Position numbers: made by a program. Of a stretch of DNA of 64,000 bases, positions 18,001-24,000 are shown one piece after another. The DNA is from Candidatus Binatia bacterium (GTDB lineage Bacteria; Desulfobacterota; Binatia; UBA12015): the NCBI GenBank assembly GCA_036563615.1, contig DATCMB010000004.1:407293-471292 (forward strand), read 5' to 3'. Position 1 is the stretch's first letter. The number at the start of each line of letters is the position of its first letter.

Positions 18001-21000
18001 CCGCTTCTACCTCCTCGGCCAGCACTTCAGCGCGATCGCGGCCGCGGGTCCGATCGCGGGGCCGATCCTCGCCTGCCTGCAGTTCGGCTGGCTGCCCTGC
18101 CTGCTGTGGATCGGGCTCGGCGTCGTGTTCATCGGCGCGGTGCACGACTTCTCGGCGCTGGTCGCGTCGGTTCGCCATCGCGGGCGCTCGATCGCGGAGA
18201 TCGTCAAGCTCACGCTCGGACCGCGCGCGTGGCTCGCGATCATGGCGTTCATCTGGATCGCGCTGGTCTACGTCATCGTCGCGTTCGCCGACATCACGGC
18301 GAGCAGCTTCGTGAGCGGCGGCGAGGACCTCGCGGGCACGGAGGTCACGTTCCACCCGGGCGGCGCCGTGGCGGCGGCGAGCGTCATGTACCTGCTGCTG
18401 TCGCTGGTGATGGGCGTCATCGACCGCGTGCTGCGCCCTCCCCTGTGGCTCCTCACGGTGGTGTTCGTGCCGGCGACGCTCGGCGTGGTCTGGCTCGGGA
18501 CCGAGATCTCGACGTGGGCGGTGCTGCCGTCGCAGACCTGGGCGCTGCTGATCCTCGCGTACTGCTTCGTCGCCTCGCTCGCGCCGGTGTGGTCGCTGCT
18601 GCAGCCACGCGGCTACCTCGGCGGCTTCGTGCTCTACCTCGCGCTCTTCGTCGGCACCGTCGGGATGTTCTTCGGCGGCTTCACGATCGAGCAGGAAGCG
18701 TTCAAGACGTGGCACGCGCCCGGTCCGACGGGCGCACTCTTCCCCTTCTTGTTCGTGACGATCGCGTGCGGCGCGTGTTCGGGCTTCCACGGGCTCGTCT
18801 GCTCCGGGACGACCTCGAAGCAGATCGCCAAGGAGTCCGACTGCAAGCCGATCGGCTACGGCGCGATGCTGCTCGAGGCGTTCGTCGCGCTGATCGCGCT
18901 CGCGACCGTGATGATCGTCGCCACACCCGATACCGCCGGCAAGGCGCCGGGCACGATCTACGGCGCCGGGCTCGGACGCTTCCTCGCCGGGATGATCGGC
19001 GAGGAGCACCTGCTGTTCGCGACGACGTTCGGCGCGATGGCGTTCTCGACGTTCGTCTTCGACACGCTCGACGTCAGCACGCGGCTCGGCCGCTACGTCC
19101 TGCAAGAGCTCTTCGGCTGGACGGGACGCGTCGGCGCGATCGCCGCGACCGCGCTGACGGTGCTCGTGCCCGCGGTCTTCGTCCTCGCCGCGGGTGAAGG
19201 CTCCTACCGCGTCTTCTGGACGCTCTTCGGCACGAGCAACCAGCTCCTCGCCGCGCTGACGCTGCTCGGCGTCAGCGTGTGGCTGCGCAAGAGCGGACGC
19301 CGCGCGTGGTACACGCTGGTGCCGATGGTGTTCGTGATGGCGATCACCGTCTGGTCGCTGGTGATCCAGGCGCGTCAAGCATTTACCGCGCTCGCGAACG
19401 GCGCTGCGGGCTTCGACACGACGACGATCAACGGCGTCGTCGCGGTGCTGCTGATTGCGCTCGCGGGGATGCTGACCGTCGAAGCGGCGCGCGAGCTGCG
19501 CGCGCCGCTTCCCGAGACGGCGGGACGCGCCGACGCGTGACGCTCACGTCGCGCGTACGCGTGACGTGTCACGCCGCGCGCCGGCGCTGCGTCACGCGGT
19601 AAACGGCACGCCCTTCGGCCAGAGGCCGAACGCCTTCCAGAGCTTGACGGTGCGCGGCGTGATGAGATCGAGCTCCTGGCAGAGCGCGCGGACCTTGGCG
19701 ACCGCGTCGGCGGTGCGCTGCCGGTGCTCGGGATTCTCGTAGTACGCCTCGCGCAGCACCGACTTCGGGATGTTGTAGGTCGCGACGATCTGCGGCGACG
19801 GCTGCATCATCATCTGCGACATCTGGCCGAGGATGAGCGGCGTGCGCACCTGCAGCATGCGCTTCTTGAACCGTCCGAGCTTCGGCACGTTGCGCCGCAG
19901 GTAGAGCCGCGCGAACGACAGGTGGCGCGCCTCCTCGGTGATGTGGATCTGGCAGATGCGGCGCAGCAGCGGGTGGACGTTCGCGCGGTTGCGCAGCATC
20001 TGACGCTGCACGTGGTCGATCGGATCCTCGCCGCCGAGCACGAACATGAAGAACAGTTCGGGGAACGTGCGCCCCAGACGCACCACCCAGCGGCTCGCGA
20101 CCTTCTGCCAGCCGGCGAGCCCGGGGATGTCGAAGCCCGAGCGGTTCACGAACTCCTGGAACATCAAGGAGTGCTGCGACTCCTCGATGATCTCGTGGTA
20201 GACGTAGCGGAACTCCGGCGCGCCGTTCGGCAGCTTGAAGGCGTACTCGAGCAGCCCGCGCTTGAGCACCGACTCGAACTGCAACCCGATCTTCATGAAG
20301 GTCGCGAACAGGTGCAGGCCGATGCGCGCGCGGATCGCCTGCGGCTGCGAGCGGTACCAGGACGTCGCGCCGAGCGAGACCTCGTTGTCGAGCTCCCAGC
20401 GCGGATCCTCGGGATCGATGCGCATCTCGGGCGCGTCCCAGTCGATGTCGGCGTAGGCATCGAAGTGCTTGACGACGGACTGGTGCGAGAGCCGCTTCAG
20501 CAGCTTGAGGTAGGCCTCGTCCTGCGCGGCTTCGCGCGCGGAGACCGAGAGCTCGTCGTCGAGCACGATCCCCGTGCCCGTCTGCGTCACCGTTTGACCG
20601 ACCGTCGTGCTCATCCTTCTTGCTCTCCATCGGCGGGCGCGGTGTGACCCACGGGGGTGTCGCCCGCGCCGACCCTCTGCGCCTCGTCGAAGAGGCGGCT
20701 CACGAGATAGACGACCATCCGCTCGAGCTCGCCGAACAGCCGGTCGAGCTCGTCGCGATCCTTGCGCAGCTGGTGCTGCAGGAAGATGCCGTCGAGCGCC
20801 GCGAGCGCGAGCGCTGCGGTGGTCTCGAGGCCCGGTGGCCGGATGCCGATCACCTCGGCGATGCCGTCCACCAAGGCGGCGCGCGCACGGTCGAAGACGC
20901 GGATCAGGACCTCGCGCGTCTCGTCGCTGTCGGCCGTGCGCTCGAGCAGCATCGAGTGCAGCAGGCGGAGCAGCGCCGGCCGCGTCTCGACCAGCTCGCG

Positions 21001-24000
21001 CATGCCGCCGACCGCCCGCGACAGGCGCTCGCGCGGGTCGCCCGTCTGGTGGACGCTCGCGACGATGCCTTCGATCCAGGCGGTTGCCGTTTCTTCGAGC
21101 ACCGCGGCGAGCAGCCCTTCCTTGCTCGCGAAGTGCCAGTAGACCGCGCTCTTCACGACGCCCGCCTCGCGGCAGACGTCGTCGATGCTGGTCGCCGAGA
21201 AGCCGCGCTCGGCGAAATGCCGCGCCGCGGCGCGCAGCAGGTTGTCGCGGCTGCGGAGCCCTTGAGCGACCCGTTTGCTGATCCGCCTGGTCCCGCTCGC
21301 GGCGGCGTTCCTGCTGGGATTTCGCGTCATTACGATCTGTCCAGAACGTTCGGTACAGAACTATCCCGAGGCGCTCCGGGAGTCAACGGGGGCTCGTCGC
21401 TTTTCTGCTCCGGCGCTCGCCGTCGCCGCTCGCGCGTGCCGGTCGCGGGCGCCCGGCGCGGCTCGCGTGACCGTCGCAGCGAAGGCGGACCGAGACCGCA
21501 TGACTCGTCGCGCGCACCGCGGATTCACGGCTGCGGCTCGGTGCGGCGCGCGGTGAACGCGTCAGCGCGCAGCGTGCCTCCGAATCACGCGCGCACCGCA
21601 CGGCGCACGATCTCGCACGCACGCATCACACACATCACGCGCGCAAGCGCGTCGCCCTACGCAATTGCCGCGCGCGCGAGCGCTGTGTTAGCCCTCGCAC
21701 CTTCGCGGAGCGTGCCGTGCGACGCGCCACCGCTCCTCGCCCGCTCGCGTGGAGCCAGCGGGAGCGACGGCACGCCGATTGGAGTCCCTCCCCGCCTGCG
21801 CCCGCGCATGCGCGGCGCGAGGCTGCCGATAGGTGTACAGAGGTACCGATGTTCGATCAGAAGCTGCACGACTCCCTTCCCGAAACGCTGCGTCCGCTCG
21901 TGCGCATGGCGGGCAACCTGTGGTGGACCTGGAACGACTACGGGATCACCCTGTTCCGCGACATCGATCCGCAGCGCTGGGACGAATGCGGCCACAGCCC
22001 GCTGCAGCTCCTGCGCACCGCACGACCGGAGCGCCTGTCTCAGGTCGCGACCGATCCCGACTACATCGCGCGCATCGAGAAGACCGTCGCCAAGTTCGAC
22101 GAGTACATGCGCGCCAAGCCGGGCTCGCCGCGCGGCGAGTGGGCGACGACCTGGGCGCGCCAGAACATCGCGCAGGCGTCCGCGGACCGTCCGATCGCCT
22201 ACTTCTGCGCCGAGTACGGGATCCACGAGTCGCTGCACCTCTACGCGGGCGGTCTCGGCATCCTCGCCGGCGACCACCTGAAGTCGGCGTCCGACCTCGG
22301 GCTGCCGCTGGTCGGGATCGGGCTGCTCTACCGCCAGGGCTACTTCCGGCAGCGGATCAACGTCGACGGCTGGCAGGAGGAGTTCTACAGCGACGAGGAC
22401 TTCCGCGAGCTGCCGCTGACGCTGATCCGTGACGAAGCCAACCAGCCGCTCACCGTCGAGGTGCCGATCCGCGGCCGCAAGGTGACGATCCAGATCTGGC
22501 GCGCCGACATCGGCCGCGTGCCGCTCTACCTCCTCGACACCGACTGCGACCAGAACGAGGACATCGACCGCTGGATCACCGCGCACCTCTACGGCGGCGA
22601 CGAGAACACGCGCATCGTGCAGGAGGTCGTGCTCGGGATCGGCGGCGTGCGCGCGCTGCGCGCGCTCGGCATCACGCCGCACGCCTACCACCTGAACGAG
22701 GGGCACTCGGCGTTTCTCACGCTCGAGCTGGTGCGCGAGCGGGTCGCCGAGGGCGCGACGTTCGAGGACGCCTGCGCCGCCGTCAAGCAACAGTGCATCT
22801 TCACGACGCACACGCCCGTCCCGGCCGGCAACGACACCTTCGATCCGTCGCTCATGCAGGCCGTGCTCGGCGACTTCCTGCAGGAGCTCGGCACCGACAT
22901 CGAGACCGTGCTCGGCATCGGACGCCGCCACCCGTCGGACAGCATGGAGCCGTTCGGCATGACGCCGCTCGCGATCCGGCTGTCGCGCTCGACGAACGGC
23001 GTGAGCAAGCGCCACGGCGAGGTGTGCGCGCGCATGTGGCAGTCGCTGTGGCCCGACGTGCCGGTCGAGCAGTCGCCGATCGGCGCGGTGACGAACGGCG
23101 TGCACCACGCGACCTGGGTCGCGCCGCTGATGCGCCGCCTGTTCGATCAGTACCTCGGTCCGGACTGGACGCAGCACGCCGACGATCCGGAGCTGTGGAA
23201 GAAGATCGACCTCATCCCGGACGCGGAGCTGTGGCGGGCGCACTGCCTGCTGCGCGCGCGCCTGGTCGCGGCGGCGCGCCATCGCGCGGAGGCGCAGTGG
23301 CGTGCGGCCGGCGAGTCGGACCAGCTCGTGCGCAGCGCGAAGCGCCTGCTCCACCCCGACGTGCTGACCTTCGGCTTCGCGCGCCGGGTCGCCGCCTACA
23401 AGCGCTGGAACCTCCTGCTCAGCGACATGGAGCGTGCGATCGCGCTGCTCGACCATCCGACGCAGCCGGTGCAGTTCGTCCTCGCCGGCAAGGCGCACCC
23501 GCGCGACAACGAGGCGAAGCGCATCCTGCAGCAGCTCATGCAGTGGAAGGATCGCCGCGAGCTCCGCGGGCGCGTCGTCTTCCTGCAGGACTACGACCAG
23601 TACGTCGCGCGCAAGCTCGTGCACGGCGTCGACGTGTGGCTCAACCTGCCGCTGCCGCCGCTCGAGGCGAGCGGCACGAGCGGCATGAAGGTCGTCGTCA
23701 ACGGCGGCCTCAACTGCAGCGTGCTCGACGGCTGGTGGATCGAGGGCTCGAACGGCGAGAACGGCTGGGACGTCGGCCCGCCCTACGATCTGCCGGCGAA
23801 GGGCCGCATGGTCGCCTCCGAGGAGCGCAACGCGGTCGACGCGCAGTCGCTGATGGACCTGATCGAGAACCACATCCGCCCGCTGTTCTACGAGCGCAAC
23901 CGCGACGGCGTGCCGCGCGGCTGGATGGCGCGCGTGCGCGCGTCGATGAAGTCGCTCGCGCCGATGTTCAGCGCGACGCGGATGGTCAAGGACTACGCGA

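Follow-up and report, generated by a model that had tools for sequence, protein, structure and literature searches.

A putative self-repressed operon of a TetR-family regulator and an AurF-superfamily diiron oxygenase in a Candidatus Binatia genome

A stretch of 64,000 nucleotides (nt) from a Candidatus Binatia bacterium (contig DATCMB010000004.1 of assembly GCA_036563615.1; G + C content 70%), referred to here as the window and used as the frame for all coordinates, carries a compact pair of genes on its minus strand. These are tetR, encoding a 239-amino-acid TetR-family repressor of an AlkX/Rv3249c-like lineage (20611–21330), and a gene for a 340-amino-acid ferritin-like diiron oxygenase of Pfam family PF11583 (19592–20614). 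The analysis points towards a self-repressed, ligand-inducible two-gene operon whose oxygenase would be directed at nitrogen, a reading to which we assign a probability of about 55%. The operon is an uncharacterised pairing of known kinds, a TetR autorepressor and a PF11583 diiron oxygenase; the regulation follows a textbook TetR design, the fold and metal site of its enzyme are typical of the family, and current understanding is not overturned. The interest of the system lies in its breadth, its strong conservation and the substrate of its enzyme, and not in a new mechanism.

The two genes overlap by four nucleotides on the minus strand. The plus strand reads tcat at 20611–20614, which is ATGA on the coding strand, so that the TGA stop of tetR overlaps the ATG of the oxygenase gene. 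An earlier reading of the same DNA, referred to here as the original prediction, had described this overlap and taken the genes as one operon; the overlap is read directly in the sequence, and the same 4-nt arrangement is present in most TetR-linked relatives, whichever lineage of TetR they carry. Judged from this gene arrangement, tetR and the oxygenase gene are an operon in which translation would be coupled.

The family of the enzyme was established by comparison with hidden Markov models (HMMs). The oxygenase matches PF11583 (AurF) with 294 bits against a cut-off of 29.6, over profile positions 2–282 of 282; no other Pfam family matches it at E < 0.01, and no NCBIfam model matches it. It fits the AurF family, as had been supposed, and no other ferritin-like family fits it better. 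Its two ExxH motifs, E145-x-x-H148 and E228-x-x-H231, lie within predicted helices (133–159 and 215–245), in agreement with the earlier description of motifs embedded in helices. The relationship to enzymes of known structure is distant. A phmmer search of all solved chains in the PDB found no similarity, including to AurF and CmlI, and a narrow profile of close relatives found no relative there. A broad profile (31 sequences, down to 30% identity) recovered AurF at 37 bits (E = 1.4e-8), with CmlI not recovered. In the alignment of this profile with AurF, residues E101, E136, H139, E196, H223, E227 and H230 of AurF correspond to E114, E145, H148, E196, H224, E228 and H231, the proposed ligands of the window enzyme, and each of these seven columns shows full invariance or a conservation of at least 90% in the 31-sequence family alignment. 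The metal site comprises four carboxylates (Glu) and three histidines, as in AurF, with the characteristic third histidine kept.

An AlphaFold model of the oxygenase (predicted local distance difference test, pLDDT, 83; predicted template modelling score, pTM, 0.81) has a ferritin-like helical fold nearest to those of CmlI and AurF (Foldseek E about 2e-3, TM-score 0.56/0.66), with which the protein shares ∼14% sequence identity. The next structural and profile matches are acyl-acyl carrier protein (acyl-ACP) desaturases, R2lox and aldehyde decarbonylases. Because the Pfam match, the ligand set and the predicted fold agree, we place the protein in a remote branch of the AurF superfamily of diiron enzymes, and the AurF/CmlI-like diiron site of the original prediction is borne out by the seven ligands and the modelled fold. 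Two other identities, ferritin/Dps-type iron storage and R2lox or the R2 subunit of ribonucleotide reductase (RNR-R2), were considered and ruled out by the Pfam assignment and the three-histidine site.

In the broad-profile alignment, Y93 and R96 of AurF align with F106 and I109 of the window oxygenase. Y93 and R96 are the anchors of the carboxylate of p-aminobenzoate (pABA) in AurF, and since both are replaced by hydrophobic residues, pABA is predicted not to be a substrate of the window enzyme. Specificity for aromatic amines is unsupported, and so is the label of an AurF/CmlI-type arylamine N-oxygenase, in view of these replacements, the lack of a pairwise match to solved chains and the low identity. 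Leads for a lipophilic ligand are given by F106/I109 at the AurF anchor positions, and by the closest solved relative of the TetR protein, which binds palmitate. The likeliest chemistry, at about even odds, would be oxygenation of the nitrogen in an amine or amide that is non-aromatic and probably lipophilic; it is favoured because the third histidine is kept and because the PF11583 enzymes with a described activity oxygenate nitrogen. In the literature found, this holds for all of them, namely AurF, TsnB7, DnfA (PMC11160463) and LitN (PMC10616846).

A candidate operator is situated immediately upstream of tetR. The original prediction had pointed out an imperfect palindrome here in the geometry expected for TetR autoregulation, and this description is confirmed. 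The 24-bp element (arms TCTGTCCAGAAC and GTTCGGTACAGA; 21336–21359, without strand) is complementary at 10 of 12 arm positions and ends 5 nt before the tetR ATG at 21330; a repeat search at the same site gives overlapping arms of 14 nt with 86% complementarity. It occurs once in the window, the number of expected matches with 3 mismatches being 0 in 100 dinucleotide shuffles and 0.02 for a degenerate version of the half-site. Conservation suggests a promoter for tetR on the minus strand, with a −35-like box TTGACT (21381–21386) and, 17 nt from it, a −10-like hexamer TAGTTC (21358–21363) that overlaps the first 2 nt of the palindrome. GATAGT at 21360–21365, with a 15-nt spacer, is an alternative −10 element.

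Orthologous tetR genes also have the palindrome upstream. Among five loci that come from different metagenome-assembled genomes (MAGs), namely the window, L001, L005, L002 and the more distant L035 (L numbers denote related loci), the core CTGTACCGAnCGnTnnGnA is invariant and its flanks are unconserved. A TTGACn box is conserved 27 nt upstream, at the same distance from the palindrome in all five, and at the −10 position TA is invariant in the five-locus alignment, the relatives reading TAAGTC, TAATTC and TAAATC. The start codon follows the palindrome by 4–5 nt in the window, L001 and L005. A second palindrome, ttACAnnCAGgCTTGACTGTtTGTt (also written ACAnnCAGGCTTGACTGTnTGT), is found upstream of tetR in nearly identical form in 37 other loci from several phyla, and is referred to here as type B, the element of the window being type A. 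The type B palindrome contains the −35 box TTGACT. In these loci, which fall among L007–L085 (for example, L047:3255–3290 and L085:5300–5330), the start codon comes close after the −10 region, and this spacing suggests leaderless or near-leaderless mRNAs for type B operons. When metagenomes were scanned with a degenerate form of the type A operator, at least 120 chance matches were obtained, and none of the matches listed lies beside a tetR or oxygenase gene.

The regulator itself has the two parts expected of a TetR protein, an N-terminal helix-turn-helix (HTH) domain (PF00440 TetR_N, 65 bits) and a helical ligand-binding domain. Residues 18–217 align with the full length of a Mycobacterium tuberculosis protein solved as PDB 5D18/5D19 = 6A4L/6A4W (90 bits, E 1e-24), which binds palmitate and then loses DNA binding (PMC6768106). 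The 5D18/5D19 protein appears to be Rv3249c/AlkX, the repressor of alkB-rubAB (PMC9430723), with which the window TetR shares a YWHF motif in the recognition helix. Orthologues of the window TetR are 73–88% identical in L001, L002, L004 and L005, and 43–45% identical in L035 and L041. The majority of partner TetRs are different. The type B TetR compared (L085:5351–5983 against window 20611–21330) shares 26% identity with the window protein over 54 HTH residues and no similarity beyond them, and its nearest solved relative is Rv0078, through the N-terminal (HTH) region only. As the similarity is limited to the HTH, the lineages are taken to be non-orthologous, and the idea that all partner TetRs form one orthologous family was dropped. 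On this comparison, two unrelated TetR lineages hold the same position before the same oxygenase clade, which argues for selection on ligand-gated expression. The recognition helix differs with the type of operator, VKSAVYWHF in type A and SRGAQLHHF in type B, as would be expected if each TetR recognised its own palindrome. Identification of 21336–21359 as a TetR operator is well supported by these sequence comparisons.

The oxygenase belongs to a large and widely distributed clade of environmental sequences. Homologues of the query number 4,336 when clustered at 90% identity and 945 when clustered at 50% identity. In species-representative genomes, 364 loci were found by a scan; the best 80 have 55–83% identity to the query and are spread over Binatia, Myxococcota, Acidimicrobiia and other Actinomycetota, Dormibacterota, and Limnocylindria (Chloroflexota), making at least five phyla. 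Cross-phylum conservation of the oxygenase at this level appears unusually strong. Neighbouring genes were counted in 82 related loci, using a gene caller based on G + C content at third codon positions (GC3) that was checked against deposited gene calls, with clustering of the products; an initial clustering of open reading frames was unusable, being swamped by spurious GC-rich frames, and was replaced by the GC3-based calling. Partner TetR genes were found by HMM, as tblastn with the window TetR undercounts them, most partners belonging to another lineage. A TetR gene lies directly upstream of the oxygenase gene on the same strand in 48 of the 82 loci, and a divergent one in 6 more, so that the suggested pairing holds in related genomes; the pair recurs in soil bacteria of at least five phyla. 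TetR-family genes are the only recurrent neighbours.

Other neighbours are sporadic and include P450s, short-chain dehydrogenases/reductases (SDRs), acyl-coenzyme A (acyl-CoA) synthetase, ATP-binding cassette (ABC) transporters, MetH with its regulator, and a carbon-nitrogen hydrolase. Those of lipid type (CYP4/CYP51/CYP102-like P450s, acyl-CoA synthetase, SDR and MCE proteins) each occur in at most about 10 of the 82 loci. In three Binatia loci (L008, 4984–6336; L009; L012) the oxygenase gene is followed directly by a third gene, which encodes a CYP4/CYP51/CYP102-like P450. In two loci from Acidimicrobiia (L046, 4984–5805; L054) a carbon-nitrogen hydrolase gene is directly downstream, an arrangement reminiscent of the hydrolase step in the DnfA/B/C system. 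Extra copies of the oxygenase, in tandem or as a second gene, are present in L021 (4001–5858), L063, L066 and L069, and L066 and L069 have a paralogue of 27% identity immediately upstream of the tetR-oxygenase pair. A more distant homologue (42% identity) is carried by a large linear plasmid, pLRE138 of Rhodococcus erythropolis R138 (L086, 204093–209122), in the order divergent TetR gene, diiron oxygenase, MCE-family protein and FAD oxidoreductase.

A subclade with a different context consists of seven loci of lower G + C content (L045, L048, L057, L065, L072, L073 and L081; 57–59% identity to the query), which have no TetR gene. Here the oxygenase gene stands at the end of nonribosomal peptide synthetase (NRPS) clusters with adenylation-thiolation-thioesterase (A-T-TE) modules, a type II thioesterase, an MbtH-like protein, a MacB-type exporter and a LolA-like protein. 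The original prediction had described the pair as isolated from any biosynthetic cluster. This is correct for the window, where the 64 kb hold housekeeping genes only and no genes for secondary-metabolite biosynthesis, but not as a trait of the family; because of this sister subclade, the stand-alone state must be regarded as common and not universal.

These observations can be combined in a model of how the operon might work. The 24-bp palindrome extends from within the −10 element over the likely transcription start, and a TetR dimer would bind there, block RNA polymerase and repress its own bicistronic operon. A small ligand, probably hydrophobic, would release the repressor and allow one mRNA to be made, with the ATGA overlap coupling translation of the oxygenase to that of tetR; a hairpin at 19527–19587 may end or stabilise the transcript. 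The soluble ferritin-like enzyme would then activate O2 at its diiron site with electrons from a general cellular reductant, as no partner is encoded in the operon. By analogy with the family, it would most likely oxygenate an amine or amide nitrogen in a substrate other than pABA, probably a lipophilic one, that is met only occasionally, as in inducible detoxification or catabolism. The role in detoxification or signalling that was suggested earlier is plausible in this respect.

Several findings weigh against this model. A strict sigma-70 promoter scan found no consensus promoter before tetR, and no reductase or ferredoxin gene is present near the tetR-oxygenase operon. The lead towards a fatty-acid ligand is weakened because it is confined to the TetR lineage of the window, most relatives using a non-orthologous TetR. 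Furthermore, the nearest cultured homologues, at ∼40% identity (Rhodococcus, Tsukamurella and Mycobacterium) are named only 'diiron oxygenase' or, from Pfam, 'AurF'. Cluster names of ten distant representatives are similarly 'hypothetical protein' or 'diiron oxygenase', and literature searches found no description of a TetR-diiron oxygenase module.

Different explanations can be proposed for the same locus, the main rival being a lipid or hydrocarbon oxidase. The enzyme would in that case be a C–H hydroxylase or desaturase, comparable with acyl-ACP desaturases, R2lox or aldehyde-deformylating oxygenase, under a fatty-acid-sensing AlkX-like TetR as in the actinobacterial alkB-rubAB system. This is unlikely overall, but it would account for the full-length relationship of the window TetR to the palmitate-binding Rv3249c/AlkX (PMC9430723, PMC6768106). 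Lipid-type neighbours in some relatives (P450s, acyl-CoA synthetase, SDR and MCE proteins) fit with it, as do the acyl-ACP desaturases, R2lox and aldehyde decarbonylases that rank next among the structural and profile matches and the hydrophobic residues that replace the polar substrate anchors of AurF. Those neighbours are sporadic, however, none being found in more than about 10 of the 82 loci, and most relatives carry the other TetR lineage and not an AlkX-like one. The oxygenase also keeps the extra third histidine, which is the mark separating N-oxygenases from two-histidine desaturases and hydroxylases, and no PF11583 member is known to have C–H chemistry. In addition, TetR proteins often co-crystallise with adventitious fatty acids. 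The chemistry first suggested, an AurF/CmlI-type arylamine N-oxygenase that makes a nitro or hydroxylamino compound and is induced by the same arylamine, is improbable. Membership of PF11583, the three-histidine/four-carboxylate site common to AurF and CmlI, and the rank of these two proteins as best structural matches are all compatible with it. Against these stand the replacement of the presumed pABA anchors Y93/R96 by F106/I109 and the searches of solved chains, in which phmmer and the narrow profile found no match and the broad profile reached AurF at 37 bits without CmlI. Moreover, other PF11583 enzymes act on amides, so that the family implies no aryl substrate (PMC11160463, PMC10616846).

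Links to natural products or to chance have also to be weighed. The oxygenase might be connected with a natural product whose synthesis takes place elsewhere, as a tailoring enzyme or a resistance copy. It would then carry out the reaction of its NRPS-associated sisters with a peptide or lipopeptide as its target in trans, or it would inactivate such a product of neighbouring organisms. The coherent NRPS subclade that lacks TetR genes gives this idea some substance, and LitN, also of PF11583, N-hydroxylates an acyl-amino-acid amide within its cluster (PMC10616846). The proposal is nevertheless distinctly improbable, as the 64-kb window lacks biosynthetic genes, the TetR-linked form is the one widespread across phyla, with the NRPS form confined to one nested subclade, and synteny in close relatives extends only to cstA, phoD and glgP-like genes. 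Finally, the palindrome could be a chance inverted repeat, or belong to the divergent glucan phosphorylase gene, and not be a TetR operator; the 518-nt region between tetR and glgP must, after all, hold two promoters. This explanation is largely refuted. About 0 such matches are expected by chance, relatives have the palindrome as a conserved island 4–5 nt from the tetR start, it stays beside tetR in L035, where the upstream neighbour is outside the phosphorylase gene cluster, and the type of operator follows the recognition helix of the TetR.

Members of PF11583 with a described activity (AurF, TsnB7, DnfA and LitN) come from biosynthetic or nitrogen-oxidation clusters, and the branch of the window is poorly studied. 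In most members of this branch the gene belongs to a two-gene module of the core genome that is gated by a repressor, and this arrangement, along with the broad conservation, argues for a conserved response to some compound that is common, and not for the synthesis of a specialised metabolite. A bolder proposal, which we consider unlikely, is that the module is a dedicated pan-phylum response to one widespread small molecule of soil, such as a lipophilic amine, an amide signal or an antibiotic, with a reaction new to PF11583. If true, the independent recruitment of two unrelated TetR lineages would mark strong, repeated selection for sensing that compound, and the operators and repressors would be a ready-made biosensor for its identification. 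The conserved operators and repressors in any case provide a direct experimental handle on the inducer and on the class of substrate.

The surroundings of the operon were described earlier as housekeeping genes, and the neighbours agree with this. The cstA gene is convergent and lies downstream of the oxygenase gene, followed by a gene for a PhoD-type phosphatase, and a gene for an alpha-glucan phosphorylase is divergent and upstream of tetR; farther genes in the window include dcw, rpsB-tsf-pyrH-frr, leu/ilv and cytochrome oxidase genes. The closest relatives of the window are MAGs labelled Candidatus Binatia, Deltaproteobacteria or Thermodesulfobacteriota. The oxygenase and cstA genes converge on a gap of 51 nt, at which the GC-rich hairpin (19527–19587, minus strand) is located; the hairpin also covers the last codons of cstA. 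It has a minimum free energy of −51.9 kcal/mol (z = −2.5 against shuffles) and no U tract, and may possibly be a bidirectional terminator or an mRNA stabiliser. The intergenic region between tetR and the glucan phosphorylase gene (21331–21848) is 518 nt long, compared with roughly 120–260 nt in L001 and L002; Rfam has no match in 21331–21848, and Rfam and tRNA scans were empty in the tetR-oxygenase region. RNAs elsewhere in the window are RNase P RNA (class A, 234 bits; 4557–4927, minus strand), tRNA-Met (6794–6867, minus strand) and tRNA-Phe (14130–14203, plus strand). ARAGORN also reports a 91-nt tRNA-Ala(AGC) at 32565–32655 on the plus strand, within a coding region and without Rfam support, which is probably a false positive.

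Several characterised systems resemble parts of the operon. The closest for the fold of the enzyme are AurF, the p-aminobenzoate N-oxygenase of Streptomyces thioluteus (PDB 3CHH, 2JCD), and CmlI, the arylamine oxygenase of the chloramphenicol pathway (PDB 5HYH). The window enzyme is only about 14% identical to them, without a pairwise match, and the residues that anchor pABA in AurF are replaced by hydrophobic ones in it. AurF and CmlI belong to polyketide or antibiotic clusters, whereas the window enzyme is encoded in a two-gene TetR operon among housekeeping genes. The amide-directed N-hydroxylases TsnB7, DnfA and LitN are placed in PF11583 by the literature (PMC11160463, PMC10616846), and are likened to the window enzyme by this family assignment only; they show that the substrates of PF11583 enzymes are not confined to arylamines. 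The substrate of LitN is a lipo-amino acid, and the LitN cluster includes a TetR gene. These enzymes have dedicated partner genes (DnfB and DnfC, or biosynthetic genes), in contrast to the window operon, which has none; among relatives of the window enzyme, L046 and L054, with a carbon-nitrogen hydrolase gene directly downstream, stand beside the DnfA-type comparison.

For the regulation, AlkX (Rv3249c) and alkB-rubAB of Mycobacterium and Dietzia offer a likeness in that a TetR protein controls a diiron oxygenase and is autoregulated within the operon, as is predicted for the window. AlkX is released by palmitate. AlkB, however, is an integral-membrane, histidine-rich diiron alkane hydroxylase that is unrelated to the soluble ferritin-like enzyme of the window, and no alkB or rubredoxin gene was found in the window or in related loci. 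Furthermore, alkX is at the end of its operon and the window tetR at the start, and the palindrome used in Rv3249c binding assays (PMC6768106) is unrelated in sequence to that of the window. EthR2/Rv0078 with Rv0077c provides another example, an autorepressed TetR beside a single controlled enzyme gene with a palindromic operator over the promoter, again as predicted here. In comparison with this pair, the genes of the window are co-directional and translationally coupled, their enzyme is a diiron oxygenase, and the pairing is conserved across phyla.

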